Source: Rhodospirillales bacterium (GTDB taxonomy: Bacteria > Pseudomonadota > Alphaproteobacteria > Rhodospirillales > Casp-alpha2). From it: DNA of 32,000 nucleotides. Shown in pieces: positions 1,551 through 17,147 of the stretch (the first letter of the stretch is position 1; each line of letters starts with the position of its first letter). The DNA is taken from NCBI GenBank assembly GCA_040216635.1, contig JAVJOU010000003.1, forward strand, positions 87,175-119,174, in the 5' to 3' direction. Under the pieces are notes generated by a model that was not told where the DNA came from, ran no database searches, and saw only the letters and a list, made by a program, of their open reading frames with translations. Position numbers and translations under genes: made by a program.

Positions 1551-1627
1551 GGCGGAGTAGCTCAGCTGGTTAGAGCAGCGGAATCATAATCCGCGTGTCG
1601 GGGGTTCGAGTCCCTCCTCCGCTACCA
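1551..1627 (+). tRNA. tRNA-Met (anticodon CAU); tRNA-Ile2 (lysidine) cannot be excluded
   Basis: Hand-folded cloverleaf: acceptor ggcggag/ctccgct, D arm gctc/gagc, anticodon arm gcgga-atCATaa-tccgc, T arm ggggg-ttcgagt-ccctc, discriminator A, encoded CCA. Not initiator-like. Confidence 0.9.
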
Positions 1628-1628: not shown

Positions 1629-1634
1629 CAAAAA

Positions 1635-1669
1635 CCCCGCTAGGTCAATGACTTAGCGGGGTTTATCTT
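1635..1669 (+). terminator. Rho-independent terminator after tRNA-Met (supplied by the element)
   Basis: ccccgcta / tagcgggg 8-bp stem followed by tttatctt. Confidence 0.6.
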
Positions 1670-1685
1670 GCCTTCCGCCCGGCAG

Positions 1686-1707
1686 TCATGTTGCAACCTT
1701 GTTGCAA
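1686..1707 (-). repeat. Tandem 11-mers ttgcaacaagg + ttgcaacatga (candidate integrase arm-type sites)
   Basis: Read on the minus strand. Same motif family as 1756-1777 and 17148-17169. Confidence 0.55.
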
Positions 1708-1755
1708 GGTAATTCCATTGAATAACAGCCAGTTACAAGCGGTGACAAAAAATCC

Positions 1756-1777
1756 ATGCAACAAGGTTGCGACAAGG
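1756..1777 (+). repeat. Tandem 11-mers atgcaacaagg + ttgcgacaagg (candidate integrase arm-type sites)
   Basis: Inverted relative to 1686-1707. The decamer ttgcgacaag recurs at 17148. Confidence 0.55.
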
Positions 1778-2128
1778 CGCGGGTGACGGCGGCAATTGGG
1801 GCGTTGGGTCGCTAAGCTTTGACGATTGCGCCCGCCCGAGTGATCGCTTGCGCGGGCGTCTATTTTGCCCTATATTGAACCCGCTTGGACAAGTGCGCCT
1901 AATCCGCATTTGGTGTTGATGGGCGCAGCAGAATACCTTATATTGTCAGAATTGGAATTATAGCGACCCGGCACCAGTCGCGGGCGCTTCTTTCGTTTGG
2001 CGCATAGACCAGACGTACACAGCCCAAGTCCCTTAAACATCAGCCCGCCGCCGCCCGTTAGGGTGCGCGGTTTTTTTGTGCGGCCACGGGACGGCCGCGA
2101 CCAAACACCTATGAGAAGGAAAGCAGAA

Positions 2129-2320
2129 ATGAACAGCATGAAATCTGGATTGAATGACGACCTTTTGCGCGGCGCGGAAGCTATCGGCGGCTACTTGGGC
2201 GAGTCCCGCCGCCGGGTGCATTACATGTGCCAACAGGGACATATCCCCGCCTTCCAAGTCGGCAAACGGTGGTACGCCAAAAAATCTGACCTGGACAAGC
2301 GGTTTAGCGCCGCCGGGTAA
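2129..2320 (+). CDS. AlpA/excisionase-type helix-turn-helix DNA-binding protein (63 aa)
   Basis: GAEAIGGYLGESRRRVHYMCQQGHIPAFQVGKRWYAKKSDLD fits the small HTH_17/MerR-like Xis/AlpA pattern. The ATG at 2129 is preceded by gaaggaaag. This is the first gene inside attL. Confidence 0.7.
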   Translation: MNSMKSGLNDDLLRGAEAIGGYLGESRRRVHYMCQQGHIPAFQVGKRWYAKKSDLDKRFSAAG

Positions 2321-2344
2321 TCCCCCGACATGATCGAGTGACAC

Positions 2345-2367
2345 AGCGGCGCAAGCCGCTTTTTTTG
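2345..2367 (+). terminator. Rho-independent terminator
   Basis: agcggc-gcaa-gccgct hairpin followed by tttttt. Confidence 0.55.
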
Positions 2368-2475
2368 TGTCCGCGCGCACAAATGACAACCCCGCCGTTC
2401 GCAGCGGCGGGGCGTCTGAATTGCGTTTGTTTGGTGGTGCGCGCTCACGCCCCCTTGGCAAAGGACTAGAACAGG

Positions 2476-3045
2476 ATGAAACTATCTGCATTCCCCCGAA
2501 AATTCAACCATGGCGTTCCCGCGCCGACATCATCGGGCCGACGCCCAGGCTATCAAATCCCGGTAGGTGATCGGGTCGCCGTTGTTGACGCGCAGGACGC
2601 GCACATCATTAAGCAATATCGCTGGCGTCGTGGCGGGACGGGTGGCGGCTACGCGGTCGCGCGCGTCAAAGGATCGACGGTGTACATGCACAGGCTCATT
2701 ATGGGGGCCGGTGCCGGTGAGATCGTGGACCATGCAAACGGCGACACGATGGACAACCGCCGAAGCAACCTCCGGCTGGTCACGCGATCAGAAAACGCGG
2801 CCAATCGCGCCACAACTGAAAACGCCTCCGGCTTCCGGGGCGTTGTCTTTCATCCCCTGAAAAATCGCTATCAAGGTCGCGTCTCAAAAGACGGCGGCAC
2901 CTATCGCGGCCCCTACCGACGCAAGGCGGAAGATGCCGCGCGAGACTTCGACGCACTCGCCCGTGGCCTGTACGGCGCGTGTTGCTCGTTCAACTTTCCG
3001 ATGGATGGTGAACGGGGCGTTACGCCCGTTGGGGGTGCGCTATGA
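2476..3045 (+). CDS. HNH endonuclease (HNH_3-like) fused to an AP2 DNA-binding domain
   Basis: VDHANGDTMDNRRSNLRLVTRSENAAN is an HNH motif. SGFRGVVFHPLKNRYQGRVSKDGGTYRGPYRRKAEDAARDFDALA is an AP2-type fold pattern. Confidence 0.8.
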   Translation: MKLSAFPRKFNHGVPAPTSSGRRPGYQIPVGDRVAVVDAQDAHIIKQYRWRRGGTGGGYAVARVKGSTVYMHRLIMGAGAGEIVDHANGDTMDNRRSNLRLVTRSENAANRATTENASGFRGVVFHPLKNRYQGRVSKDGGTYRGPYRRKAEDAARDFDALARGLYGACCSFNFPMDGERGVTPVGGAL

Positions 3046-3581
3046 ACAACCAAGTTGAGGCGCTCACAGCCCATGACCCTATCAAGCCGGTCCCGCGCGA
3101 TATGCTGGCGAACGCAATCATGGTTGGTTCGCGGGCATATGCGGGCCGGGATCGCATGGCCCCCCTCGCTGGTCAATATGCGCCGTCCCTATGGATGGAA
3201 GATGAGGATGACGGTCTGCAACTTGTCACCTTCACGAATCATCCGTTGAACCGCTTTGCTATGTCGATCCTGGATGCAAACCCGTTCGACCGCGACACAG
3301 CCCGCGCGCTTCTGTTCCGGTCGTTCCTGTTCGCGGACGTGATGAACGACAAACGGGCAGCACCCTATCGGCGCGACGACACCGCCGCCCATATGGTTGA
3401 GGTTGACGACGCATTAATTGAAGCCGTCGCGCAGGTGCCGCACGCTTTCATGGCGCAACCAAACTTTGACGAAATATTCCGCCGCGCTGCTGATGCCGTC
3501 TCAGGCCAGCCGCGATTGCCTCTGGCCGATCCAGCGCCCGTGCGTTGTGGAAAACCGGAGGACGAAAACCATGCCGGATAG
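3042..3581 (+). CDS. Hypothetical protein (179 aa)
   Basis: ATGA overlap with the upstream gene and co-directional operon context. No recognisable motif. Confidence 0.55.
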   Translation: MNNQVEALTAHDPIKPVPRDMLANAIMVGSRAYAGRDRMAPLAGQYAPSLWMEDEDDGLQLVTFTNHPLNRFAMSILDANPFDRDTARALLFRSFLFADVMNDKRAAPYRRDDTAAHMVEVDDALIEAVAQVPHAFMAQPNFDEIFRRAADAVSGQPRLPLADPAPVRCGKPEDENHAG

Positions 3582-3858
3582 CGCACCCATAGACACCCGT
3601 TCCAACGAGGGCGTTGCCCTTCGATTGTCCGAAGGTTGGCAAATCAACTTCGACTCCCTTCAATGGATCGTCTGTAGGGGCCGAAATTTGCGTTCAGGGC
3701 GCAAGTGGCAGCCCGTGGCATACATCGCGGCCCGGAAGTCTTCACTCCTGCGGATACTGGCCGAATACGGGGCGGAAATTACCCCAGGGGCCGAAGCGAC
3801 CTTAACAGCCTGGCCCGACACCTTCCGCCAGTGGCGAGCGCAACGGGAGGGGCGTTAG
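3571..3858 (+). CDS. Hypothetical protein (95 aa)
   Basis: The internal ATG at 3571 is preceded by ggagga. It ends directly before the primase ATG. Confidence 0.5.
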   Translation: MPDSAPIDTRSNEGVALRLSEGWQINFDSLQWIVCRGRNLRSGRKWQPVAYIAARKSSLLRILAEYGAEITPGAEATLTAWPDTFRQWRAQREGR

Positions 3859-4851
3859 ATGTTTGGCGCTCATGCGCCGGATTACATCGCGCACCGGCTG
3901 GCCGTGTTTCCGACCGGGGGCGATGATGGCAAGCGGCCCCTTGTTGGTAATTATTCTCGAATGGGTTTGCCCGCGTCCCGGCGCTTATCCCAGGCCCAAC
4001 GATTCAGGACCGCGAATGTAGGATTCTGCACCGGCCCCAGATCAGGCTTAACCGTGGTCGATGTAGACAGCCAGAAGGAAAGCGACTTTGCCGCCGCGCT
4101 GGCCCACTTCGGGGACACCCCGGTAAAGATTCAAAGTGGATCTGGACATTTCCAGGCATGGTATAGGCACGGCGGAGAACGGCGACAAATCCGCGCCCTG
4201 GATAAGATCGACATTCTAGGCACCGGCCTTTGCATCGCCCCGCCGTCTGTTCGCCCGGATCGAGACAACGGCGCTTATCGGTTTCTGGAAGGCTCGCTTG
4301 ACGACCTGGACCGCTTACCCGCCCTGAAATCTCCCGTAGCGCCTTCCCAGGCTGGCCCGGCGCATGTTTCGACTGGAGGCGCGGAACAGGGCCAGCGGAA
4401 CATCTCTCTATTCAGACAGTGCTTAAAAGACCTAGCCGAAGGATGGCCCGCCGATGAACTGCCCGCCCGTGCTTGTGCCTGGAATGAACAGTGCACCCCG
4501 CCGCTACCAGAGGCCGAAGTGATGGCCGTTGCAGCATCGGCAATCCGCTATCACGAACGGGGCGAGAACTGGATAGGCCAGGAAGCCCGCGCACATATCA
4601 CGGCCAGTGAATTAGGCGACCTTGGCGGCAATGGTGATGCCGTGTTGCTCTTGATGAAAGTCCGGGCCGCGCATGGCTGGCGTTGTGGTGAACCGTTCCC
4701 GCTGGCGATGGCGTTGGGCGAGACGCTTGGATGGCACCCCAAAAAATTCCGACAAGTGCGCGGGTTTCTGTGCGAGCGCGATTATCTGGAATGCGTTCAC
4801 CCCGGCGGCGCTGGTCCCGGCGACCCGGCCCTATATCGGCTGCTTAAATGA
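3859..4851 (+). CDS. Bifunctional primase/polymerase (Prim-Pol N-terminal domain) with PriCT-like C-terminal domain
   Basis: VVDVDSQKE...IQSGSGHFQAWYRH...ILGTGLCIAPPS matches the Prim-Pol catalytic pattern (DxD, sGGxH). The C-terminal NISLFRQC...PLPEAEVMAVAASAIRY is PriCT-like. Confidence 0.8.
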   Translation: MFGAHAPDYIAHRLAVFPTGGDDGKRPLVGNYSRMGLPASRRLSQAQRFRTANVGFCTGPRSGLTVVDVDSQKESDFAAALAHFGDTPVKIQSGSGHFQAWYRHGGERRQIRALDKIDILGTGLCIAPPSVRPDRDNGAYRFLEGSLDDLDRLPALKSPVAPSQAGPAHVSTGGAEQGQRNISLFRQCLKDLAEGWPADELPARACAWNEQCTPPLPEAEVMAVAASAIRYHERGENWIGQEARAHITASELGDLGGNGDAVLLLMKVRAAHGWRCGEPFPLAMALGETLGWHPKKFRQVRGFLCERDYLECVHPGGAGPGDPALYRLLK

Positions 4852-5023
4852 CCGTTCGGGCAAAGTGGCAAAAGGGGGCACATTTTTGCCCCCAATATAA
4901 CTATACCCCTTCCCCCCTCTATCCAGGGGACCAGGATCGAAAACAGCCAGAAACCAATTTTGCGCGATTTTCGATTTTCAATCCGCGTCGTGAGACGCCG
5001 AGGCCCATAGAAGGAATTTCAGC

Positions 5024-5206
5024 ATGAAAGAAGATTTGCAATTTGGCCGCGTTGACCTTTTCCCAGACTGGCTGGAATTGCTGCGGTCGGTTGACTATGA
5101 CGTTGACCGGTTGCCGCGAGCCGACGCACGCGCGGTCTATCACGGCCTACGGATGAGCAATATTTGGCTGATGGTCCCCCGCCGGAGCCGTCGCGATGCT
5201 GATTGA
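5024..5206 (+). CDS. Small hypothetical protein (60 aa)
   Basis: gaagga lies 9 nt upstream of the ATG. Its stop overlaps the start of the next gene. Confidence 0.35.
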   Translation: MKEDLQFGRVDLFPDWLELLRSVDYDVDRLPRADARAVYHGLRMSNIWLMVPRRSRRDAD

Positions 5207-5726
5207 TGAATCTGTTTTCGCGGATTGGCCGCCGGGCGCGTTCATCTTCAACATGGCGAGTCCCGCCAAGGTGAACGCGGCCCGTTTACGCCGAATTGCG
5301 GAAGACCTGGCTACACACAGTAACCAGGATCATAGATGGCTTGGCGAGCGTGTTCTTGACTACCTGGACGACGCCCCACGAGGCGCGACCCTGGACCGTG
5401 CCCTAGGTGTTGAACCTTTGCCGTTTTGTCGCCCCTGGTGGGACGAGGACACCCGCGACAACCTAGTGACTCAACTGGCCGCCCACTTTCCAGGCAAGAA
5501 GCTAACCGTAAAGGCTAAGGCGAGTGCCGCCGCTGCGAGACGATATGCCACCGACGTATGGCCGCGCGAGTGTGGCCTTTCTGAGCCGCCGGAATGGCGA
5601 GAGGGGTCGGCGCAGGAAATCTGCTGGCGGCTTCACAAGGCCCCCGGCAAATGGCCGTTGGGCTGGCGCCAGATTTACAGCGTTTTGCAATCACGACCCG
5701 TTCCGATTGCAAAAACTGAGGCGTAA
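5196..5726 (+). CDS. Hypothetical protein (176 aa)
   Basis: Co-directional ORF with normal amino-acid composition. No recognisable motif. Confidence 0.55.
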   Translation: MLIDESVFADWPPGAFIFNMASPAKVNAARLRRIAEDLATHSNQDHRWLGERVLDYLDDAPRGATLDRALGVEPLPFCRPWWDEDTRDNLVTQLAAHFPGKKLTVKAKASAAAARRYATDVWPRECGLSEPPEWREGSAQEICWRLHKAPGKWPLGWRQIYSVLQSRPVPIAKTEA

Positions 5727-5777
5727 ATTTGTTGCATGGAAGGCGGGACAGCCCCCGCCCGTAGTGGAGAAATTAAA

Positions 5778-6383
5778 ATGTTTGGAAAAAAGCAGGCCAA
5801 GCTTCCGGCGGTTGAAACCGTGGAGACGTCTTCGCAGGACGCCCGCGCCAAGGTATCCGCATTGAGGGCACGTTTGCGCGAACTGGAAAACGAACGCGCC
5901 CGCCTGAATTCCGCACGTTGGGCGATTGAAACCGCGAATGATGGCGGCAAGCTTGATGATGCCGCCGCCGCGCTGTTGGAAGACGTTGCTGCCGAAATCC
6001 CAGACGTGACCAACATCGAGCAAAATCTCAAAAAGGTTGAGAACGATATCGTCGTTACAGAGAAAGCCTTATTCAAGGCACGGGAAATTCTGGACGCTGC
6101 AAAGCGGCGGGATGCAAGGGCGGCTGTTAAGCAGCTGCGCCCGGCGCACCGTGAGGCCGTCGCTAAAATCGCGCACGCCCTAGCCCTTTTGGAAGATGCC
6201 AACAGGGAGGAAGCCGCGATCAGGGGACAGATTCCGGGCGGCGGGCCAACGCTGCCGTTGGCTTCGTTCCCCGGCGTTGGGGGGCGTAATATCCAATGTA
6301 GTCCGGCCTTTTATTGGTTCCGCTTCGCCAAGGACAGCGGCTTGCTGGATGAGCGGCCCCTCTACGCTGACGCGGCGGATTGA
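5778..6383 (+). CDS. Coiled-coil hypothetical protein (201 aa); a scaffold-like role is only a guess
   Basis: The ATG at 5778 is preceded by ggagaa. Long charged, Ala-rich helical segments (ARAKVSALRARLRELENERARL...). It sits directly upstream of the prohead-protease-like gene. Confidence 0.5.
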   Translation: MFGKKQAKLPAVETVETSSQDARAKVSALRARLRELENERARLNSARWAIETANDGGKLDDAAAALLEDVAAEIPDVTNIEQNLKKVENDIVVTEKALFKAREILDAAKRRDARAAVKQLRPAHREAVAKIAHALALLEDANREEAAIRGQIPGGGPTLPLASFPGVGGRNIQCSPAFYWFRFAKDSGLLDERPLYADAAD

Positions 6384-6386
6384 TCC

Positions 6387-7031
6387 ATGACAAATTTGAT
6401 CGGAGTGGATGGCCGCGCCCTTGCCGTCGTGGGATTGGCTTTGCCCTATGGCGAGTGGATTTCCGATAGCAACCTACCCGAACGCGTCCAGTCTGGCGCG
6501 CTTGATAGTCAGTTTGCGCGGGGCGTGTGGTGTCCTGGTGATCCTCAATTGTCCAATGGCGTGACCTGGGAACATGACGACACATTCCGAATTGCAGAGC
6601 CGCAAAACGTCTCAATCCTGAATGCGCCGTCCGGCTTGTACTTCCATGCTCTACTGCCCGACAACGCGCGCGGAAGGCATGCCGCCCAATGCGCGGGATC
6701 AGGGATATTCGGCGCGAGCGTCGGCAATTTCGACATTCGCAACCAAGATCAGGACGGCACGGTTACGGCGTGCAGAATCCGCGCCATCGGCCTTACAGAC
6801 CGCCCGGCATATGAAACCGTTATTTGGCGTTCCGACGCGGCCCCCGAAAGCATGCCGACGGAAGCCCGAGACACTATGCGCCGGTTTCAGATTGCCGACA
6901 TGGCAGCGCGTAGCCGGACGGACGCCCCCGAAGCGAAGGGCACGGGTAAGGCTGTAATTCACATTTTCCAGGACGGCGCGAAAAACGGAAAGCCGACATA
7001 CCGCCGCGAAGTCAGAACGGTGCGCCCATGA
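6387..7031 (+). CDS. HK97-family prohead protease-like protein (S78 type)
   Basis: VTWEHDD (candidate catalytic His) and GIFGASVGNF (candidate Ser) occur in the usual order, and LTDRPAYE lies near the end of the domain. Confidence 0.6.
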   Translation: MTNLIGVDGRALAVVGLALPYGEWISDSNLPERVQSGALDSQFARGVWCPGDPQLSNGVTWEHDDTFRIAEPQNVSILNAPSGLYFHALLPDNARGRHAAQCAGSGIFGASVGNFDIRNQDQDGTVTACRIRAIGLTDRPAYETVIWRSDAAPESMPTEARDTMRRFQIADMAARSRTDAPEAKGTGKAVIHIFQDGAKNGKPTYRREVRTVRP

Positions 7032-7657
7032 ACGGCGCGACCTTAACCCTTGTAACACCGCCCCCCGTTTATCCGGTGACGGACGCGGAAGTGTGGGACC
7101 ATCTGAGGGTGAACCTCATAGGGTCGCCTGCGGTCCCTGTTGACCAGTCACATATCGCGACCCTCATTGCCGCCGCCGTCAACCATATGGACGGTAAGGA
7201 CGGCGCGTTGGGCCGCGCCTTGGTCACTCAAACCTGGGACTACAAAATGGATTGCCTTCCGCGTGACGGCTTTAAAGTCCCGTTGCCGCCCGTGCAGTCT
7301 GTGACGTTCATCAAGTACATCGACCTAAACGGGATCGAACAAACGCTATCCTCTGACCTGTACACGGTCGATACATCTTCTGAACCGGCGCGGATCGTCC
7401 CGGCATATGGCGAGACGTGGCCCGACGCCCGGAACCAAGTCAACGCCGTCACAGTGCGCCTTGTCTGCGGCTACCCCCCCGAGGGAAGCCCGGCAGACTA
7501 CCGCGCGAATGTGCCCGGCCCCATCAAATCGGCGATTAAGCTGTTGGTCGATGACCTGTACCAGCACCGGGGCACAGCGGGGCCGCGCGCACCCATCAAG
7601 ACCATTCCCCTCAATGTGTCGGCGCTTATCGCGCCCTATCGCGCGTGGGGGGTGTGA
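7028..7657 (+). CDS. Head-tail connector/adaptor (gp6-like, phiE125 gp8 / TIGR02215-type)
   Basis: N-terminus: VTDAEVWDHLRVN...IATLIAAAVNHMDGKDGALGRALVTQTW. C-terminus: PLPPVQSVTFIKYIDLNG...YTVD...PARIVPAYGETWP...VTVRLVCGY. Confidence 0.7.
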   Translation: MNGATLTLVTPPPVYPVTDAEVWDHLRVNLIGSPAVPVDQSHIATLIAAAVNHMDGKDGALGRALVTQTWDYKMDCLPRDGFKVPLPPVQSVTFIKYIDLNGIEQTLSSDLYTVDTSSEPARIVPAYGETWPDARNQVNAVTVRLVCGYPPEGSPADYRANVPGPIKSAIKLLVDDLYQHRGTAGPRAPIKTIPLNVSALIAPYRAWGV

Positions 7658-7660
7658 CGC

Positions 7661-8077
7661 ATGTTTGACAAACTGAAACACAAATTCGGTAGGGCCGTTC
7701 TCCCCCAAGCCGAAGGGGCCGGCAGCGTCTCCGGGTGCGTTGGCGCGCCGCCCCATCAATTCCAGGACCAAGCCGACAAGGAAACAGACGCGGCTTTTTT
7801 AATCATCGAGCAAAGCCCGGACCCCGCCATGGCTGCAATCACACTTGCCACAGTTGCGGTTGATCTTGTCGCGGCTGTAGGTGGTCGAAAGGTCGCGCGT
7901 GATTTCGTGATGATCCAGCTTGCCCGCGTCCGCGCTAACGCCATCCCGGCCCAAGTCGATATTGAAGGGATCACGGTTGCTGATGTACGCGCCGCCATCG
8001 AAGCACAGCGGGTCAAGGTCGAACAGGCCGCGCAATCATCGGAACAGCTTCGCGTCCTGATGCCGGGGCCGCAATGA
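7661..8077 (+). CDS. Hypothetical protein (138 aa)
   Basis: Co-directional ORF 3 nt after the previous stop. No motif recognised. Confidence 0.5.
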   Translation: MFDKLKHKFGRAVLPQAEGAGSVSGCVGAPPHQFQDQADKETDAAFLIIEQSPDPAMAAITLATVAVDLVAAVGGRKVARDFVMIQLARVRANAIPAQVDIEGITVADVRAAIEAQRVKVEQAAQSSEQLRVLMPGPQ

Positions 8078-8183
8078 TGGGCGAGGTATTGCACACAGAC
8101 GGCCACCAGGGGATGGGGGGGCAAAATAGCTACAAGACGGGTTTTTGCGTACCGGTGTTGCCCTTTTGCGTGGATGAAATGGA

Positions 8184-8555
8184 GTGTTTCCTTTGAAAAA
8201 TTCTGATGCCCGTTCGTCCGTCAAAGGACTGTCCGCCGAAGCGAAACGCTGGCAGCGCCGCCTTACCGACGAATATTCGCTAGACGACGAGGCCGCTTGC
8301 TTGTTGCTGCAAACGGCGCTGGAAGCGTTCGACCGTATGAGGGACGCCCAACGCTACATCAAAAAAGACGGTGCAGTGGTCAAGGATCGTTTCGGCCAGA
8401 CGCGGGCACATCCCGCCGTGGTCATTGAACGCGATAGCCGCGCCGCGATGCTGGCCGCATTGAAGGCGTTGAATCTGGATATTGAACCTTTGGCCGATGG
8501 TCCAGGCCGTCCCGCCGGTTCATTCAAAACCGGGGGCAAGCGAAGTGGCGACTAA
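8184..8555 (+). CDS. Phage terminase small subunit, P27 family
   Basis: LSAEAKRWQRRLTDEY.LDD.AACLLLQTALEAFDRMRDAQRYIKKDG..VKDRFGQTRAHPAV is the typical P27 TerS pattern. The start is uncertain: GTG at 8184 or TTG at 8193. Confidence 0.75.
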   Translation: MFPLKNSDARSSVKGLSAEAKRWQRRLTDEYSLDDEAACLLLQTALEAFDRMRDAQRYIKKDGAVVKDRFGQTRAHPAVVIERDSRAAMLAALKALNLDIEPLADGPGRPAGSFKTGGKRSGD

Positions 8556-8790
8556 ACGACGGAAAAGAGTTCGGGGATTTACCGAACGGATTACGCCGGA
8601 GGCCGTGGCAGCCTATCAGGCCGGGGATTGGGGAGCGCTCACCCGTGCGTTGAGATTGAAGCCATGGGACATGACCGCGCGCGCCGTGATCCATGGTCAT
8701 TGCGTTGTGGACACTCCCGAACAGATCGCCCGGACGAATGCCCTACGGGCGGAACTTGACGCGCTGGCGGGGGGTGCCGATGGCGACTAA
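8545..8790 (+). CDS. Small basic hypothetical protein (81 aa)
   Basis: GTG start overlaps the end of terS. The N-terminus is VATKRRKRVRG. Confidence 0.45.
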   Translation: MATKRRKRVRGFTERITPEAVAAYQAGDWGALTRALRLKPWDMTARAVIHGHCVVDTPEQIARTNALRAELDALAGGADGD

Positions 8791-9049
8791 ACGCACGCGC
8801 CGTTCACGGGGACGCCGCCCTGATGATGCCCGCGCATGGGCCGTCTTGTTTGAAACGGGGCACGATTATTTTGAAGACCTGGCCCGCCTTGGGTTTCCCG
8901 GTGGCGATGGCGACCGCGCCGCCCGAACAGCGGCAAGGGACGCATGGGCGCGTCTGGGGCGCACCTTCCTGTCCGCTTGGCAACCGACACCACAACGCCA
9001 GACACCTTGGGCGCGGGATCAATTCGGCGCGCCTGTAGGGGGTGTGTGA
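8780..9049 (+). CDS. Small basic hypothetical protein (89 aa)
   Basis: The ATG overlaps the previous gene. The N-terminus MATKRTRRSRG is encoded by nearly the same DNA as the previous start. Confidence 0.45.
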   Translation: MATKRTRRSRGRRPDDARAWAVLFETGHDYFEDLARLGFPGGDGDRAARTAARDAWARLGRTFLSAWQPTPQRQTPWARDQFGAPVGGV

Positions 9050-9486
9050 TGGGGCCGGTTAAATTCAATGTCTCAGGTTTGCGGGAAGTGGAAACCGCGC
9101 TCACCCGCCTTGGCCCCGAACTGGCCGAACAGGTAGGGGATACAGCCGTGCGCGCAATGTCGAAACCCATCATTGAGGAAGCCAAACACCGCGCGCCGCG
9201 AGATACCGGCGACTACGCCACTAAGGGAATCGGCTACGCCAAGGATAAGGCGGATTCCAGAGACGGACGTCGGGCCGGGAAGGTTGGTGCGACCGGAGCG
9301 GGACGTTTCATCGCACACCTTTTGGAATTCGGAACATCGAAGGCGGCGGCAAAGCCGCACTTCCGCCCCGCCCTGGACAGTAGGGCGAATGATGCAATTA
9401 GGGCGGGCGCCGAAGCCTTGGCCCGTGGATTAAAGAACGTCGCGCGCCGACTGGCGACCGGCAAGAAAGTTAGGAGTATTCGATAA
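9049..9486 (+). CDS. HK97 gp10-family head-tail/tail-completion protein
   Basis: AKHRAPRDTGDYA...GRFIAHLLEFGTSKAAAKPHFRPAL matches the gp10-like pattern (P..tG.L...vEfGt...a.PF..PA). Confidence 0.75.
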   Translation: MGPVKFNVSGLREVETALTRLGPELAEQVGDTAVRAMSKPIIEEAKHRAPRDTGDYATKGIGYAKDKADSRDGRRAGKVGATGAGRFIAHLLEFGTSKAAAKPHFRPALDSRANDAIRAGAEALARGLKNVARRLATGKKVRSIR

Positions 9487-11777
9487 TGGCTACGTCTGTT
9501 GGTTCAGTTGTCATTGACCTTGGGCTTGAGTCGGCTTCGTTTAGTCGCAACGTCGCGAAAGCGAACAGCGATCTATCGCGCGCAACAACCCAAATGCGGC
9601 TGCATATGCGTTCCGTGGATCGGGCCGCGCGTGATATGTCCCGCCAATTCGGGCAACTGAAATCCGCCGCCGCCGCTTTCGCGGGCGTCCTGGCCGTGCG
9701 CCAGTTTACGCAATTCACGAAATCCGCAATTGAAACCGGGGACGCCTTGGCGAAGCAATCCCGACAATTGGGAATCGCCGCCTCAGAACTGCAACGCTAC
9801 CGGATCGAGGGCGATCTTGCCGGGGTGGCTACCGAAAAACTTGAATCCGGTATCGGGGCTTTCGTTAAGCGCGTTGGGGAACTACGCGCTGGAACGGGAA
9901 CGCTGGTCACGATCCTGGATAAGTCGAACGTGGCGCTTAAGGAACAGTTGCTTGCCGCCAAAGACACGGGCGAGGGGATCGACATAATTCTAAAGGCCAT
10001 CCGGGAAGCTGAAACGGCGTTCGACAAACAAGCCCTTTCCGCCGCCGCCTTTGGCCGACAAGCCGGGCAAGCCATGGTCCTGCTGGCAGAGGAAGCCGGG
10101 AAGCTGGACGGCCAAATGGTCAACCTTGTCACGCGCTCCGATGAAATGCTGGCCGCGTCGGAACGCCTGAATGATGAGTTCACGCTATTTCAATCCGCGC
10201 TATCGGCGGGGTTTGATAATGCCATTGTAACCGGCTTTGCCGGGTCGCTGGACGTAACCGTTGAGTCCATGCGCTCGGCGCGGGAAGTCGGAGAAACCTT
10301 CGGCAAGGCCGTGGGGGCCTCCATGCGCGCCCTTATCACGGTGGCGAAAACCGTTGCCGAAAACATGCGGGGAATCACAGCGGCAATTGCCGGGCTTGTC
10401 GCCTTGAAGGCAGCAACACTATTCACGGGCATTGCGACGGCAACCGCGACATTCGCGACCGCGACCCTTGCCGCCGCCCGAGCCCAAGGCGTGTTGAACA
10501 CCATCGTTAGCAAGTCCGTCTTGGGGGCAATTGCGAAACTGGCAATCACTCTTGGGGCCGGTGCCTTATCGTGGGCCGCATTCGGGAAGGAAGCGGACGC
10601 CGCCGCAAAGGCCGTAGATGCCGCCGCTAAGGACATTGCTGATTCACTCTCCGGCGCGGGTGGTGCTACTCAGTTTGTCGGCGCGCAACAAAGCGCCTTT
10701 GACCAATTGCAGGAATCACTTGTCCCGGCGATCAAGGCGCAACGTGAATACGCCGAAGGCGTGAAGGCATTGGACGCTGCCGTCGAGGCGGGCAAGATCA
10801 GCTTCATGGACTACAACCTGATGCTGGAAACGCTTCAGATGAACTTGGACGAAGCGACAAAGGGGACCATTGCTCTTTCAAAGGCACAGAAGGAAGCCGC
10901 CGACGCCAGTAAGGCTGCGAAAACAGAGAACACCCGCATTGCCGCCGAAACCCAGGCCATCATGGACGGGGCCAAGGCATGGGAAGATTACAAGAAGTCT
11001 CGCGAGGTCGATCAGGAAGTTACGGCGCTCAAAAAGGATCTGGAATCCGCCGGATTGGCCGCCGATGAAATCAAGCGCCTGACGGAAGAACGCCGTTTCC
11101 TGCTGCAAGTTCAACAAGAAGCCATCGAACAACATGAACAGGAACAAACCCTTTATCGGGAGTTAGAGCAAGTCGGCTCCCGCGCCTTCGACCGCATTGG
11201 TGCCGCTGTTACAGAGATGTTTGTGCAGGGCAAGTCCAGCGCCTTCGAATGGAAGAATGTTCTGCTCGGGGTGATCTCCGAAATTCAGCAGGCATTCATC
11301 GAACTGGCGTTGAATCAGGCCAAGGCGTCTGCGTTTGGTGGTGGTGGCTTCCTGTCCTCAATTTTGGCTGGGTTTTTCGGCGGCGGCGGAAGTGCCGTTG
11401 CGGGTGCTTCTGGAATGAGCGCCATCGGATCATCGGTCCCAATGGCGTTCTTGGCAGATGGTGGTCCAGCTAAAGCCAACACGCCCTATATCGTTGGTGA
11501 GGAAGGCCCGGAACTATTTGTTCCCAACGTCTCCGGCCAGGTTGTTCCGAATGACAGGCTTGTCTCCGGCTCGGGGATGTCGCGGGTTTCTTCCGGTGTA
11601 TCCGAGAAGTCCGGCGACACCTACGTCATCGACGCCAGGGGCGCGGACCGCGAAGGCTTGGCGCGTCTCGAAAAGATGATTCAGTCTATCAACGGCAGCA
11701 TCGAAAAACGCGCCGTTGGGGCAGTTGCCGATGCCCAACGTCGTGGTCGTCCGGCCATGCGGGGGGCCTTCGGGTGA
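9486..11777 (+). CDS. Tail tape measure protein (763 aa)
   Basis: Long Ala-rich helical protein with a hydrophobic central segment and a Gly-rich tail. It has the C-terminal PYIVGEEGPELFVPNVSGQVVPN motif common in tape measure proteins. Confidence 0.8.
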   Translation: MATSVGSVVIDLGLESASFSRNVAKANSDLSRATTQMRLHMRSVDRAARDMSRQFGQLKSAAAAFAGVLAVRQFTQFTKSAIETGDALAKQSRQLGIAASELQRYRIEGDLAGVATEKLESGIGAFVKRVGELRAGTGTLVTILDKSNVALKEQLLAAKDTGEGIDIILKAIREAETAFDKQALSAAAFGRQAGQAMVLLAEEAGKLDGQMVNLVTRSDEMLAASERLNDEFTLFQSALSAGFDNAIVTGFAGSLDVTVESMRSAREVGETFGKAVGASMRALITVAKTVAENMRGITAAIAGLVALKAATLFTGIATATATFATATLAAARAQGVLNTIVSKSVLGAIAKLAITLGAGALSWAAFGKEADAAAKAVDAAAKDIADSLSGAGGATQFVGAQQSAFDQLQESLVPAIKAQREYAEGVKALDAAVEAGKISFMDYNLMLETLQMNLDEATKGTIALSKAQKEAADASKAAKTENTRIAAETQAIMDGAKAWEDYKKSREVDQEVTALKKDLESAGLAADEIKRLTEERRFLLQVQQEAIEQHEQEQTLYRELEQVGSRAFDRIGAAVTEMFVQGKSSAFEWKNVLLGVISEIQQAFIELALNQAKASAFGGGGFLSSILAGFFGGGGSAVAGASGMSAIGSSVPMAFLADGGPAKANTPYIVGEEGPELFVPNVSGQVVPNDRLVSGSGMSRVSSGVSEKSGDTYVIDARGADREGLARLEKMIQSINGSIEKRAVGAVADAQRRGRPAMRGAFG

Positions 11778-11842
11778 GTTTGGCTATACGGGCGTTTGGC
11801 CCTTGGTAAGGGAGTATTCCTTAGCAGGGAGCCCGCTTGTAG

Positions 11843-11898
11843 TGCCCAGGGGCGGATTCGAACCACCGACACCCGCATTTTCAGTGCGGTGTTCTACC
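11843..11898 (-). pseudogene. tRNA-Phe(GAA) 3' fragment (D-arm remnant to discriminator), non-functional
   Basis: The minus strand reads ggtagaacaccgcaCTGAAAAtgcgggtgtcggtggttcgaatccgcccctgggca. The anticodon arm, variable loop, T arm and 3' acceptor strand are intact. There is no 5' acceptor/D-stem partner and no CCA. Confidence 0.75.
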
Positions 11899-12355
11899 TA
11901 TTTCCCGTCGGGCGGCAGTACCCCGGCAATCGAATTGCCCTTCTGGCGTCCGGCGTTTCCAATTCACGATACCGTCCACCGGAAAACCTGGGGCAATCGA
12001 GCGCCAACCCAGCCTTGATAACCTCGGTCCCAATGTCCCTGTTCCCGAGATAGCAGATACCAACAACCCGGTCATGGGTTCGCGTCCCATCCAATTCGCA
12101 CCGCACGGCCTGGCCCATGACCAGGCGCACCATGAATGCTTTACCCTCATCGTATAGGGGTTGCCTTTTCTCGGGTGCGGAGACGCCTTGAAGGCGCACG
12201 GCGATACCCTCAACCTCAATCGTGTCACCGTCGCGCACGTGGGTGACGGTCCCTGTCAAGTCGGCGGCGAAGCCTGTGACGGGATAGCTGAGCAAGGTCG
12301 TGACGGCGAAGAAGAGCTTAGCGTAATTCCCAAACTTCACAGGTGAACGGGTCAA
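11894..12355 (-). CDS. Secreted thermonuclease (staphylococcal nuclease/SNase family)
   Basis: Signal peptide ...LLSYPVTGFA-AD. VRDGDTIEV...VRLQGVSAPE shows SNase Ca-binding and catalytic motifs. Confidence 0.8.
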   Translation of the reverse strand: MTRSPVKFGNYAKLFFAVTTLLSYPVTGFAADLTGTVTHVRDGDTIEVEGIAVRLQGVSAPEKRQPLYDEGKAFMVRLVMGQAVRCELDGTRTHDRVVGICYLGNRDIGTEVIKAGLALDCPRFSGGRYRELETPDARRAIRLPGYCRPTGNR

Positions 12356-12358
12356 TTT

Positions 12359-12754
12359 CTAGTTGGACAATTTTACCGCCAAATTGATGACGACGTCGTA
12401 AAAATATATCACGCCCATTACAACGGCAGCTACTCCAGGTAAGAGCAAAAAAAATAACCCCGCCCAAAAAACTAAACCGATAAAAGCGTTGTCACTATCT
12501 AATCCCCATTTTCCAATCCGATGGCCTATCCGTCCGAGTGCAGATAACACAGTTACAAGCCAAAGTAGCGAAATAAAGAACGCAAACCCCCTAATCAGCA
12601 CATCGCCAGATAATCGACCGATGGCTACAATAGTTGATATTATTAACAACCATCCTAGAGATTCAAAAACACGCCCTGTCAATCCCCATAAGTGTTGATT
12701 AACCCATGTGATAGCCGCTGATTTTAGTGAATCTAGTTTATTCATAATCAACAT
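12359..12754 (-). CDS. Small integral membrane protein (131 aa, 3-4 TM), unknown function
   Basis: gggagg RBS. Hydrophobic segments: GWLLIISTIVAIG, FAFFISLLWLVTVLSALG, FIGLVFWAGLFFLLL, VAAVVMGVIYFY. About 41% GC by hand count over 12361-12760, against about 73% in the next 60 bp. Confidence 0.65.
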   Translation of the reverse strand: MLIMNKLDSLKSAAITWVNQHLWGLTGRVFESLGWLLIISTIVAIGRLSGDVLIRGFAFFISLLWLVTVLSALGRIGHRIGKWGLDSDNAFIGLVFWAGLFFLLLPGVAAVVMGVIYFYDVVINLAVKLSN

Positions 12755-12780: not shown

Positions 12781-13023
12781 TCACTCCCCCGGCCCCCGAA
12801 GCCTGACCCCCGGCCCCTGGCCGTTGCTGGCGATGAACACGACCCCGGCGGCCTCTAGGGCCGTTCGTAATCTTTCAAGTGTCTCGTCGCGCGCTGAAAC
12901 GGGTCCGTGAATCTTTTCCAGGCGCTTAACCGTCTCAAGCGAGACGCCCGCCGCGCCCGATAGGTCGCGTTGCTCCATGCGAACCAACGCCCGCGCGGCT
13001 CGGATTTGTTCCCCGGTCATCAT
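12781..13023 (-). CDS. XRE-family helix-turn-helix transcriptional regulator (80 aa)
   Basis: GEQIRAARALVRMEQRDLSGAAGVSLETVKRLE is a classic HTH_3 pattern. Confidence 0.8.
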   Translation of the reverse strand: MMTGEQIRAARALVRMEQRDLSGAAGVSLETVKRLEKIHGPVSARDETLERLRTALEAAGVVFIASNGQGPGVRLRGPGE

Positions 13024-13159: not shown

Positions 13160-13873
13160 ATGCCTGATTTTACCAGACGACAGGCTACGAATGCCATCGC
13201 CGCAAGCGCCGTGATCGCCCCAATTACATTAACCGCGCATGCCTCAACTGACGGTGCGGTTGCGGCCCTCGTCAAAAAACGTGCGGAACTATGGGTTAAA
13301 TTTTGCGCCGCCGACAATTTAGCTGATGAGCGCCGGTTCGCGTTGCCTGATGAAATCCGCCGCCCGCGTGTCTTGTTGAGCGACGGACACCCAATAGGCC
13401 CGCAATACGCACACAGCAGGGAAGAAATCGCCCGGTATTTCGACCGTTTCAAACAGGAAGCCTTGGCTACAAAGGATTTCGCCGGGTTCCTGATGTGGGC
13501 GCAAATCAATCAAATACCCGGAAGCTGGACGGCGGATGAAATGCAATCGTCGGGACCGCTGGCCCGGGAACGGTATTTTGATAACCTCGCCAAAAACCGC
13601 GCCGCCAAGCTGGCCGAATACGAACAGGCGGAAGCCCGCACCCAAGCCGCCAAGGACGCGGCGGGCGTGACGGATGCCGAAGCCGAAGCGGCCCGGATCG
13701 ATGCGGAAGAAAGGGCAACCGTACAAGCAATAATCGACACCCCGAGCGGTGGCCCCCGCGACTTGCTCGCCAAACTTTCTATGTTGGAAATCACGGAGGG
13801 CAGCAGCGAAGCCTACTGGCACGGCGACATTCTCGAAAGCCTGCGCCGCGATCTACAGGCCGTGGGGGCGTGA
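13160..13873 (+). CDS. Hypothetical protein with Tat-like N-terminus (237 aa)
   Basis: MPDFTRRQATNAIAASAVIAPITLTAHA has a twin-Arg, a hydrophobic stretch and A-H-A. The rest is helical and charged, with no recognised domain. Confidence 0.55.
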   Translation: MPDFTRRQATNAIAASAVIAPITLTAHASTDGAVAALVKKRAELWVKFCAADNLADERRFALPDEIRRPRVLLSDGHPIGPQYAHSREEIARYFDRFKQEALATKDFAGFLMWAQINQIPGSWTADEMQSSGPLARERYFDNLAKNRAAKLAEYEQAEARTQAAKDAAGVTDAEAEAARIDAEERATVQAIIDTPSGGPRDLLAKLSMLEITEGSSEAYWHGDILESLRRDLQAVGA

Positions 13874-14075: not shown

Positions 14076-14116
14076 TTGTCCGAGTCCTCTTGCCAGATGG
14101 GAGCGGCGGGGAATAT

Positions 14117-14131
14117 GTTCGCATTATGTTC
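14117..14131. promoter_or_regulatory. Alphaproteobacterial-type LexA (SOS) box, GTTC-N7-GTTC
   Basis: gttcgcattatgttc. It overlaps the candidate -10 (TATGTT; -35 TTGCCA at 14090-14095) and the umuD ATG at 14126. Confidence 0.65.
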
Positions 14132-14566
14132 TCATCATCCCAGAAACACCGAATCCTGCACCCCATCGTTGAACGGCGGCTTCCGTTACCGTTGTTATTG
14201 TCGAGTGTGCCCGCAGGCTTCCCGAGCCCCGCCGAAGATTTCGCGGATGGGGCACTCGACCTTAACGATTTGATCGAGCATCCAGCGGCGACCTTCATTG
14301 TTCGGGTGTCTGGGTATTCTATGACTGGGGCGGGTATTTTTGACGGCGACCTACTGATTGTGGACCGGAGTATTAAGCCACGATCCGGCCAAATCGTCGT
14401 TGCCGTCATGGCGGGGGATATGATGGTGAAGCGTCTGAGACAGAAATCCGGGCAGTGGTGGTTGGTGCCTGAAGCCCAAGACCATGAAGAATTTCAAGCT
14501 GTGGAAATGGGCGAGGACTCGGAAATCTGGGGCGTGGTCAAGAATGTGATGCGGTGCTTGTCGTGA
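14126..14566 (+). CDS. umuD: UmuD-like S24 peptidase (translesion polymerase V accessory subunit)
   Basis: [12 protein letters not shown] aligns with E. coli UmuD VQCGFPSPAADY, placing an Ala-Gly cleavage site. GYSM supplies the Ser and MVKRL the Lys. Start set at the ATG at 14126 within track ORF 14090..14566. Confidence 0.85.
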
Positions 14567-15816
14567 CCCGCATTTTCGCCCTAGCCGATGCCAACAATTT
14601 TTATGCGTCATGCGAGCGGGTGTTCCAGCCGGAGCTACGCGATAAGCCCACGGTGGTCCTGTCCAACAACGACGGATGTGTGATAGCCCGTTCACCGGAG
14701 GCCAAAGCTCTAGGCATCGCCATGGGAGCCCCTTTTTTCAAGCTGCGAGAGCGGCCCGAATGCCGGGGCGTCCAAATCCGATCCGCGAACTTCACGTTAT
14801 ACGGCGACATGAGCCGCCGGTTCATGGACATCATCGCCGCCAACGTGCCGGACATGGAAATCTACAGCATTGATGAGTGTTTCATCGATTACACCGGCAC
14901 GGATCAGGCAGCGGGTCACGCGCGGGCGCTTCGGGCCACTATCCTGCAATGGACCGGCCTCCATGTGAGCATCGGCCTAGGTGTGACCAAGACCCTTGCC
15001 AAGGTCGCCAACCGCCGGGCCAAGACAGCCCCTGATGGGGTTTTTGATTTGATGGCCCCGGACATACGGGAAAACGTGCTCAGGGAAACCGACGTTGGCG
15101 ACGTGTGGGGAATCGGGCGGCAGTGGTCGAACCGCCTTAAGCTTCGCGGCATTCAGAATGCCTTTGACCTGGCCCAGGTGGACCGGCAATGGGCGCGCAA
15201 CGTCATGGGCGTCACCGGACTGCGCACGGTCGATGAACTGAACGGTCTGTCCGCAGTGGATCTGGAACATGTTCTCCCGGATAAGCAGACCTTGTGCGTC
15301 TCCCGCAGCTTCGGAACCACCGTCCGGGATCGTGATGGACTGGCGGCCCGCCTGCATCACTTCGCAGCCAGGGCGGCGGAAAAGCTGCGCCAGGGCGGCT
15401 TGGTCGCGGGTGCCGTCAACGTATTCATCCGGGGCAACCCATTCCGTCCCGACCTACCGCAATATTCGAACAGCGCCACAGTGAACATGCTGCAATCGAC
15501 CTCCGATACCGGAGACATTGTACGAGCTACGTTACAAGGCCTGGATGGGATATACCGGCAAGGCATTCCCTACAAAAAAGCAGGTGTGTTGCTGGTGAAT
15601 ATTCATCGTAGAGAGCAAGCGCCGCAGACATTATTCAGCAGGCCAGACGCGCGCCGGGATGCGTTAATGCACACCCTGGATAAATTGAACAGCAAGCACG
15701 GTGCCGGCACCCTCTGTTATGGCGAACTACCACAGCCACGGACGTGGTTTATGCGGCAGCAGCATCGATCGCGACGGTATACGACGCATTGGGGAGAGTT
15801 GCCGATAGTGAGTTAA
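14554..15816 (+). CDS. umuC: Y-family DNA polymerase V catalytic subunit UmuC
   Basis: [48 protein letters not shown] closely parallels the E. coli UmuC N-terminus. GTG starts at 14554 or 14563 overlap the umuD stop. Confidence 0.9.
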
Positions 15817-15923: not shown

Positions 15924-17147
15924 ATGGCAAAGGTTAGAAAGCGCAAATGGGAGTCCGGCGGCAAAACCCGCGAGGCTTGGGTGGTCGATTATTTCGACCA
16001 AAACCGAAAGCGCCACATTGAGACGTTCAAGACGAAGCGCGCCGCCGATGATCGGTTGCATGAAATCGCGGGCGAGGTTCGCGCCGGGACGCATACCGCC
16101 GCAAGCGAAAGTGTGACGGTAAAGGAAGCCGCCGCCGATTGGATCACGCGCGCGGAATTGAACGAGCGCGAACAATCGACCATCGACCAATACCGCCAAC
16201 ACGTAAACCTCCATATCGTGCCGTTGATCGGCAATGAAACGTTGGCGCGGTTGACGGTGCCCGCCGTCGAAGCCTTCCGGGATAAGCTGCTGGATCGTGC
16301 GTCGGCCAAGCGGCCCGATGATAAGATTTCACGCGCCACGGCCAAGAAGGTACTGGCGAGCCTGAAAGGCATTCTCAGGGAAGCGCAGAGGCGCGGGAAG
16401 GTGGCTCAGAACGTCGCCGCCGACGTGCGAGTGGAAATGTCGAAACGCAACCGCCGTAGCTTGGAAATCGGGCGGGACATTCCTTCCCGCGACGAAGTGA
16501 AAGCGATCATTGATGCCTCAGAGGGTCGATGGCGCCCTCTGATTATCACGGCGATATTCTCGGGCTTGCGCGCCAGTGAATTGCGCGGGCTGCTTTGGGA
16601 TCACGTCGATTTTGAAGGCAAGGTTATTCACGTCCGGCAACGGGCAGACCGCTATGGCGAAATTGGCAACCCGAAATCGGAAACCAGCCGCCGCGATGTT
16701 CCGATTCCCGATATTGTGGTGAACACCCTAAAGGAATGGCGCTTGCAGTGCCCGAGGCACGGGAAGTCGGAAACCAGTCCGGGCGAATTGTGGCTGGTAT
16801 TCCCGAACGGCCTAGGCAAGATCGAGTCTCACGCGAACATCTATAACCGGGGTTTGGTCCCTGCCCAGATCGCCGCCGCCGTCACCGTGGATACGGGCGA
16901 AGTGGATAAGGACGGAAACCCCATCCTGGCCCCCAAGTATGCGTTGCACGCCTTCCGCCACTTCTACGCATCTTGGCTTATCAACCGAAAGAAGGACGGG
17001 GGCCTTGAGCTTCCGGCAAAAACCGTGCAATCCCGCCTTGGTCATTCATCTATTCAGATCACCATGGACCTATACTCGCACCTGTTCCCCGCCGACGACG
17101 GCCACCACAAGGAATTGTCAGATGGGGCGCGGCTACTACTCGGGTAA
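15924..17147 (+). CDS. int: Tyrosine-type site-specific integrase (phage integrase family)
   Basis: Catalytic pattern: ...GLRASELRGL..., HAFRHFYAS (H-x-x-R) and GHSSIQITMDLYSHL (Tyr). The N-terminal arm-binding-type domain is MAKVRKRKWESGGKTREAWVVDYFD. An aggag RBS is present. Confidence 0.9.
   Translation: MAKVRKRKWESGGKTREAWVVDYFDQNRKRHIETFKTKRAADDRLHEIAGEVRAGTHTAASESVTVKEAAADWITRAELNEREQSTIDQYRQHVNLHIVPLIGNETLARLTVPAVEAFRDKLLDRASAKRPDDKISRATAKKVLASLKGILREAQRRGKVAQNVAADVRVEMSKRNRRSLEIGRDIPSRDEVKAIIDASEGRWRPLIITAIFSGLRASELRGLLWDHVDFEGKVIHVRQRADRYGEIGNPKSETSRRDVPIPDIVVNTLKEWRLQCPRHGKSETSPGELWLVFPNGLGKIESHANIYNRGLVPAQIAAAVTVDTGEVDKDGNPILAPKYALHAFRHFYASWLINRKKDGGLELPAKTVQSRLGHSSIQITMDLYSHLFPADDGHHKELSDGARLLLG

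Follow-up and report, generated by a model that had tools for sequence, protein, structure and literature searches.

Why should a mobile island integrated at one tRNA gene hold, in its interior, copies of the anticodon arms of three others? The question is raised by a 32,000-nucleotide (nt) stretch of Rhodospirillales bacterium DNA (assembly GCA_040216635.1, contig JAVJOU010000003.1, positions 87,175 to 119,174; hereafter the window, with the host genome denoted G000), in which a 15.7 kb island resembling a phage satellite carries pieces of tRNA-Phe(GAA), tRNA-Ser(GCT), and tRNA-Thr(GGT) at the junction between a phage-like block and a block of nuclease and XRE-type regulator genes. The original prediction had recognized the tRNA-Phe piece alone and explained it as the attachment (att) site remnant of a tRNA-Phe-integrating element, joined to the rest of a chimeric island by recombination. 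The cluster is read here, with a probability of about 0.45, as a maintained bank of anticodon-arm copies resembling bacterial attachment sites (attB), placed at a module junction of the satellite, where they would act as landing pads or decoys for other elements.

Three anticodon arms at a module junction

The tRNA-Phe piece, on the strand opposite to the tape-measure-like gene, copies nt 18-74 of the only tRNA-Phe gene of the host (G000:C29), which lies on a different contig and of whose 3' end this is the only second copy. As first proposed, the 5' half is lacking and the identity to tRNA-Phe is specific: 56 of 57 positions match, the sole mismatch being at nt 24, while the next-best host tRNA matches at 40 of 57 and the median is 32 (44 ARAGORN calls in the genome). 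The extent given earlier, from the anticodon arm through the 3' acceptor strand, was correct as far as it went; the copy starts further upstream, in the D-loop, and includes the 3' strand of the D-stem. The thermonuclease gene does touch the fragment, as had been noted, but overlaps it by 5 nt rather than abutting it, and the D-loop supplies its TAG stop codon. ARAGORN called no tRNA gene at 11842-11898. Infernal scored it at 28.4 bits (E = 0.045), just under the gathering score of 29, with the acceptor and D-stem pairs broken and with an alignment that spans the full 71-position model by taking a poor 5' half from coding DNA. A functional tRNA gene at 11842-11898 is ruled out, there being no complete cloverleaf with a 5' acceptor strand and D-arm.

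The fragment follows the tape-measure stop, as described originally, but the 64 nt that separate the two were passed over and hold two further tRNA pieces. One copies host tRNA-Ser(GCT) nt 22-42, comprising the anticodon arm and its left flank. The other is a tRNA-Thr(GGT) anticodon arm, inverted relative to the Phe and Ser pieces; its 15-mer is identical to a site that occurs a single time per genome in 11 further members of the genus, in two of which (G002 and G015) the site was verified to lie in a tRNA-Thr gene. Each of the three arms spans the 7-nt anticodon loop and both stems. When 200,000 random 64-nt windows of the reversed genome were searched for exact matches across a host anticodon loop, none had a match of at least 18 nt and 129 had one of at least 13 nt. 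The Ser piece is far above chance expectation; the Thr piece is the weakest of the three arms and is weak by itself, and its case therefore rests on recurrence beside Phe arms in G002 and G106, described below. No comparable arm was found elsewhere in G000, the other long tRNA repeats being end fragments that in most cases begin at nt 28-33 and run to the 3' end.

The Phe copy lies in mid-island, within bounds formed by tRNA-Met repeats, and not at a border starting from its cognate tRNA; no Phe-specific integrase adjoins it in the window. The GC content drops from 0.595 on the left of the junction to 0.557 on its right, and the two sides are separated by a 4-mer distance of 0.363, compared with 0.225-0.289 for six adjacent block pairs within the left module, so that the compositional step looked for near position 11,800 is present. 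The position of the fragment as a module boundary, between a replication/late block and the nuclease/XRE block, is supported. The chimeric origin that had been proposed stands to this extent, and a 56%-identical thermonuclease lies within a true tRNA-Phe island of G066. A lone inert 3' att scar, however, is not what is found: the copy is one of three different arms, the four true Phe att fragments seen in the family start at nt 28-31 rather than nt 18, the 3' end is lost in four of six copies while the anticodon arm is kept, and the arm is far better conserved between elements than the genes around it. Among 80 thermonuclease loci in genome_contigs (29 viral nuclease loci lay outside the scan), one has such a Phe copy downstream, and the nuclease is therefore not generally tied to it.

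Recurrence and conservation in related islands

Relatives of the island were sought through a marker gene (window ORF, or open reading frame, 3418-3858), which is present in 16 of 401 genomes of the order. Arms occur in four of these, namely the window and three further satellite-like islands, from two genera and located at tRNA-Met, tRNA-Asn, and tRNA-Ser sites. The tRNA-Asn island of G002, from the same genus, has two Phe copies, one of them with a Thr arm beside it, and a Ser arm. The tRNA-Asn island of G106, from another genus, has Phe nt 18-76 followed by inverted Thr nt 16-47, which is the window layout without the Ser arm. G098 has Phe nt 22-45 in an island at the 3' end of tRNA-Ser(GCT). 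A more decayed Phe arm lies within a small insertion in G009. The Phe arm borders the nuclease/XRE block in all four arm-bearing satellites, and every tRNA piece inside them covers the anticodon loop and belongs to one of three kinds among about 40.

Arms were compared by a core score, which requires an exact loop and counts matches in the 10 + 10 flanking nt, with a scan cut-off of 12. The window scores 19 for Phe (9 + 10 of the 20 flanking positions) and 15 for Ser (10 + 5), with Thr below the cut-off; the scores are 20 and 17 for Phe, 17 for Ser, and 12 for Thr in G002, 20 for both Phe and Thr in G106, and 18 for Phe in G098. The maximum in the reversed 3.8 Mb genome is 13, and among the marker loci classed as arm-negative G109 has one borderline Thr score of 14. 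An attB-like core, consisting of the 7-nt loop flanked on either side by about 10 host-like nt, is thus present in the Phe arm of the window, partly in the Ser arm, and not in the Thr arm.

Pattern searches gave a similarly narrow distribution. In 96 genomes of the family, the Phe-arm pattern identified six well-formed extra copies in five genomes, all within two genera (39 genomes), together with one true attR (right attachment site); seven other matches were dropped, being without tRNA flanks. A composite Phe + Thr pattern, which the spacing in the window itself falls just outside, gave four matches in the 401 genomes (G002, G106, and two that look like chance from the matched letters), two in metagenome_contigs, both of which are the G002 element, and none in viral_contigs. 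The exact Phe arm matched viral_contigs twice, each time in a whole phage tRNA gene, and the exact Ser arm had no match there. In phage and plasmid collections the Phe part alone was matched, with no record covering more than 80% of the query, and no relative was confirmed in viral_contigs by searches with the tape-measure and marker genes. Several 13-mers among 20 regions fetched for Thr-pattern matches lay in ordinary surrounding sequence and were taken as chance. The arm cluster is real but, within the searches made, confined to one lineage.

A blastn comparison of the window with G106 yields just two matches, the Phe arm (98% over 57 nt) and a 73-nt stretch at 75%, while the proteins shared by the two islands are 34-40% identical; neutral common descent therefore does not fit. 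Several arms are identical to the genes of their own hosts, including Thr in G106 (32/32), Ser and Thr in G002 (21/21 and 16/16), and Phe in G098 (24/24). Among the six island-borne Phe copies the 3' end is lost in four and the anticodon arm is kept in all, three of the six having come from full-length BLAST and the rest being open to a search bias favoring an intact anticodon arm; upstream of nt 18 none of the six has any match to tRNA-Phe. Because the arms outlast the surrounding genes and mostly follow host alleles, the arm site appears to be either selected or renewed often by recombination with host tRNA genes. The anticodon stem of tRNA-Phe is itself changed in genera g1 and g34 (L056:94-169, corresponding to G000:C29), with CGCA/TGCG compared with CGGA/TCCG elsewhere. 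Extra Phe arms were seen only in these two genera, and Phe islands only outside them.

Landing pads, scars, or transcripts

The Phe, Ser, and Thr tRNAs are all integration targets crossed at the anticodon loop in this bacterial family. True tRNA-Phe att fragments run from nt 28-31 to nt 76 in all four cases (G066, G077, G047, and G053), in G008 tRNA-Thr(GGT) nt 24-75 bounds a prophage of 40 kb whose genes include a portal, a large terminase, and a repressor, and tRNA-Ser(GCT) nt 1-44 is a 5'-type island target in G005. The core site of a tyrosine recombinase consists of a 7-bp overlap and about 10 bp on each side, and a Thr piece found in one of the introns described below (nt 21-47) has exactly this size (7 + ~10 + ~10). 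An anticodon-centered site is used by about half of the islands in tRNA genes (tDNA; 2083/3919) according to the Islander survey (PMC4383910; this and the other papers cited are drawn on for their accessible portions). Elements that replace the 5' half of a tRNA gene, a rare class in the same survey (159/3919; PMC4383910), also occur in the family, where 5'-type fragments include Arg-CCG nt 1-39 (G000:C19:104453-104491) and Ser-GCT nt 1-44 (L059:1210-1253), and a decayed Thr-GGT fragment ending at nt 47 lies at L179:7490-7525.

The arms are located at module breakpoints in every case. In G002 a 5.7 kb block of cargo and integrase genes lies between the two Phe copies. Put together, the outer halves of these copies restore a perfect host nt 18-56, and both inner halves are diverged, a pattern that fits what would be left by insertion into a pad. 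The Ser arm of the same island marks the point at which the replication gene differs. Under the proposed bank, the arms would be kept matched to host tRNA genes, through selection or repeated recombination with them, because the integrases of other elements would treat them as attB, and other islands or prophages could then insert into, or recombine with, the satellite at the cluster. The satellite might benefit from a hotspot for cargo swapping or from a decoy that draws incoming phage DNA and its integrase off the chromosome.

Several observations weigh against a maintained bank. The evidence comes from four elements in two genera, and 12 of the 16 marker-bearing genomes have no arm (seven of those 12 loci end at or near a contig end). 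The Thr arm of the window and the Phe arm of G106 represent the allele of another lineage. No Phe-specific integrase lies beside any arm: an integrase gene ends on the Phe arm of G098, but the inner integrases of G002 and G098 are 24-25% identical to the Phe integrase of G066, and their family lies near a tRNA-Glu fragment in 24 of 30 loci and near a Phe arm in one of 30. Among the best 150 of 656 matches, none placed an island at tRNA-Phe in either arm-bearing genus (39 genomes together), and a Phe integrase for this allele is therefore only putative. The Phe copy starts at nt 18 in the window and in two other copies, and the true att fragments to which this start is compared come from other genera; an unrelated Leu att fragment (L170) starts at nt 17, so that a start at nt 18 is compatible with an attR. 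The right-hand borders, at nt 47 for the Thr pieces and nt 44 for the Ser piece of G002, are those of 5'-type att sites (G089 and G005), and the five Phe copies in satellites all have the same orientation with respect to the XRE gene, as a role in RNA would predict.

Some narrower candidates were also set aside. A nested Phe-specific element in G002 was weakened by the homologues of its inner integrase, which adjoin an ODP-DHH gene or tRNA-Glu fragments, not tRNA-Phe. Placement of the three tRNAs near the replication origin was rejected, tRNA-Phe being about 1.0-1.6 Mb from dnaA in five complete genomes, as were hairpins of the repetitive extragenic palindrome type mobilized by their associated transposases (REP/RAYT), with PF01797 in none of the five arm-bearing genomes and no other such arm in G000. 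The G008 Thr prophage, considered as a helper, had no tblastx match to any of the four satellites. The gene that fuses ODP (metallo-beta-lactamase fold) to DHH is found repeatedly, in islands from four genomes that have a common left border (G000:C26:464952-468234, L050:11284-14579, L059:3405-8026, and L052:6337-8273), followed in three of the four by one or two tyrosine integrases.

The borders at nt 47 and nt 44 belong to the alternative that survives best, itself rather doubtful, namely that the pieces are recent, unselected scars. In that case a tRNA-Phe element would be the source of the nuclease/XRE block, and 5'-type att junctions in further islands would be the source of the Ser and Thr pieces, with frequent module swapping piling up fresh att remnants or abandoned cores of phage attachment sites (attP) at the junction, later to erode. 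The compositional step, the thermonuclease homologue in the G066 island, and the integrase or excisionase-like gene that adjoins the Phe arm in G002, G098, and G106 are in keeping with such a history. Scattered partial tRNAs in islands have been interpreted as leftovers of earlier integrations (10.1101/2020.12.28.424599), and a composite phage-inducible chromosomal island (PICI; PMC10111431) has been described with a foreign attP in its interior. Scars, however, should sample many of the tRNAs that serve as att sites, which in G000 alone include Asp, Pro, Met, Val, Lys, Arg, Thr-CGT, Gln, and Ser, yet three kinds are all that is found. The remnants described in the accessible literature derive from the tRNA of the island itself, whereas the arms here are foreign to the site of the island. 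Erosion would also have had to spare the anticodon arm in six of six Phe copies (a count subject to the search bias already mentioned), and the same tRNAs would have had to be captured again at the same junction in unrelated elements.

A role of the pieces as RNA is unlikely. Here the leftward XRE-nuclease transcript would, at its 3' end, provide anticodon stem-loop mimics or antisense RNAs that soak up tRNA-cutting defense nucleases or tRNA-binding proteins, with late-gene read-through as another possible origin; alternatively, the hairpins would terminate and stabilize convergent transcripts. Both Ser copies share the XRE-gene strand with the five Phe copies, the upstream ORF stops at the D-loop TAG in three of those five, the predicted Thr-Ser hairpin of the window has a z-score of -4.09, and there is a precedent in phage tRNAs that act against an anticodon nuclease (PMC11464382). 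There is nevertheless no fold of the cluster common to the elements (six of seven stretches have z between -1.3 and +0.9) and no equivalent of the joint fold of the window; terminator-like matches are at chance level (3 versus 2.4 +/- 1.8), and the identity to host alleles extends past the stem, beyond what a terminator needs. The Thr arm is inverted in two of three satellites, and in one intron the anticodon is flipped between host-matching flanks; a DNA site therefore suits better than an RNA mimic. The remaining possibility, a decayed element-encoded tRNA-Phe gene with Ser and Thr matches arising by chance, is very improbable and already largely refuted: the Infernal score, obtained over the full-length model with coding DNA as a poor 5' half, and reports of elements carrying whole tRNA genes (PMC11476347) speak for it, but the missing upstream match in all six copies, a chance below 1 in 200,000 for the Ser match, and the recurrence of Ser and Thr arms in G002 and G106 do not agree with it.

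Thr arms were also encountered outside the satellites. Five group-I-like introns or intron remnants lie in tRNA-Leu(TAA) genes of G106, G015, G020, G023, and G103 (L171:5482-5936, L174:6301-6500, L175:6218-6544, L188:2323-2634, and L259:1315-1605); Rfam gave 48.6 and 40.3 bits for the two that were scored, both under its cut-off of 50. In three of the five a Thr(GGT) arm directly precedes the last hairpin, at a place taken by a small hairpin in the remaining two, although the sample is biased because the three arm-bearing introns were found through the Thr pattern. The arm in G106 matches its host at 27/27, and that in G020 matches nt 19-47 except for the flipped anticodon. An att-like Leu fragment lies downstream of the intron in G106 and G020, and islands may therefore deliver the intron-bearing half of the tRNA. 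A broader version of the decoy bank, in which satellites and group I introns on tRNA-Leu islands both carry maintained multi-target attB decoys that trap or recruit phages and islands, is possible and is put forward more tentatively. Driven by the integrases of other elements, such banks would serve for integron-like capture or as a sponge against integration.

The island and its relation to known systems

The island is bounded by a 46-bp repeat beginning at the anticodon loop of tRNA-Met (Table 1). Its genes follow the order excisionase-like helix-turn-helix (HTH) protein, HNH protein, primase-polymerase, head-tail adaptor, small terminase, HK97-gp10-like protein, and tape-measure, after which come the leftward block (thermonuclease, membrane protein, and XRE HTH), umuDC, and the integrase. 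Profile searches detected no portal or large terminase in the island, and a single weak partial match to a major head protein (E = 9e-7, 6387-7031). By its predicted genes, the island is phage-satellite-like (PICI- or tycheposon-like), because an integrase, att repeats, a primase, and a small terminase are present without a full virion set; the excisionase-like HTH and the length of about 15 kb belong to the same picture. In the G106 and G098 relatives, large unannotated ORFs take the place of the tape-measure, head-tail adaptor, HK97-gp10-like, and small terminase genes found within window 1630-11777. The mutagenic polymerase genes resembling umuDC adjoin the integrase as cargo and were not found in the three related satellites. 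A 21-nt inverted repeat (1689-1774, 90% complementary, 44 nt spacing) just inside the left end of the island is a possible regulator or integrase-arm site. The hydrophobic protein of the leftward block has no match in Pfam, PHROG, or NCBIfam.

Table 1. Features of the island and of the arm cluster, in window coordinates
Feature	Coordinates	Strand	Evidence
tRNA-Met(CAT), left end of island	1551..1627	+	ARAGORN, Infernal
Small conserved ORF (family marker)	3418-3858	+	ORF and homologue searches
Primase-polymerase	3859-4851	+	Pfam and homologue searches
Tape-measure-like gene, last in rightward phage-like block	9486..11777	+	PHROG tape-measure families, E to 9e-13
Predicted hairpin between two convergent genes, Thr arm paired with Ser arm	11778..11845	+	-33.7 kcal/mol, z -4.09
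tRNA-Thr(GGT) anticodon arm, inverted	11800..11814	+	13/13 to host nt 28-40 at 11800-11812
Copy of host tRNA-Ser(GCT) nt 22-42	11818..11838	-	21/21
Copy of host tRNA-Phe(GAA) nt 18-74, D-loop to acceptor 3' strand	11842..11898	-	56/57 to G000:C29
Thermonuclease (SNase) gene	11894..12355	-	PF00565, E 1e-6
Hydrophobic hypothetical protein of leftward block	12359..12754	-	ORF
XRE-type HTH regulator, head of leftward block	12781..13023	-	Homologues in 4/4 arm-bearing satellites
Hypothetical protein, divergent from XRE gene	13160..13873	+	Weak G106 match, E 0.003
umuD-like and umuC-like genes	14090..15816	+	Profile match
Tyrosine integrase of island	15924..17147	+	PF00589
Right att repeat, 46 bp, from tRNA-Met anticodon loop	17208..17253	+	100% to 1583-1628

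Parts of this arrangement have precedents. The att fragments in tRNA genes catalogued by Islander (PMC4383910) are, like the arms, host tRNA pieces with an anticodon loop in elements with tyrosine integrases. Those fragments, as the accessible text defines them, are ends of the target tRNA of the island itself and lie at its border (PMC4383910), whereas the arms are inside the island, derive from three other tRNAs, are clustered and partly inverted, and mostly fall in the internal class that the Islander filter rejects. The tycheposons of Prochlorococcus (10.1101/2020.12.28.424599) are likewise PICI-like satellites at tRNA genes with partial tRNAs inside the islands; as described in the available part of that paper, these partial tRNAs are those of the island itself and mark tandem accretion (10.1101/2020.12.28.424599), unlike the fixed trio of foreign arms that recurs here in elements at Met, Asn, and Ser sites. 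Helper-embedded and composite PICIs (PMC10111431) share the holding of one element's attB by another, nesting, and an internal foreign att site. In the case documented there the attB is in a late gene of the phage and the satellite is the invader (PMC10111431), while here the satellite would offer targets derived from tRNAs. Prophages and islands of Sinorhizobium meliloti (PMC11476347) are also alphaproteobacterial elements with tRNA-Thr(GGT) and tRNA-Ser(GCT) sequence, but what is reported is complete tRNA genes that differ from those of the host (PMC11476347), compared with the non-functional, arm-sized, and nearly host-identical pieces of the window. That paper, in its accessible portion, raises the use of element tRNAs as integration sites and states that there is no evidence for it (PMC11476347). 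A full-text literature search, with most subscription journals and supplements outside its coverage, found no description of clusters of foreign anticodon arms inside satellites.

Fragments of tRNA genes in islands are usually taken for dead scars, and island-mapping software filters out those that are internal (PMC4383910, in the portion available). If the pieces of the window are scars after all, they remain a record of modules exchanged repeatedly between islands with at least four different tRNA genes as targets. If the arms are a maintained bank, host-matched copies of the integration sites of others would give mobile elements a means of competition or cargo collection that has not been described before.
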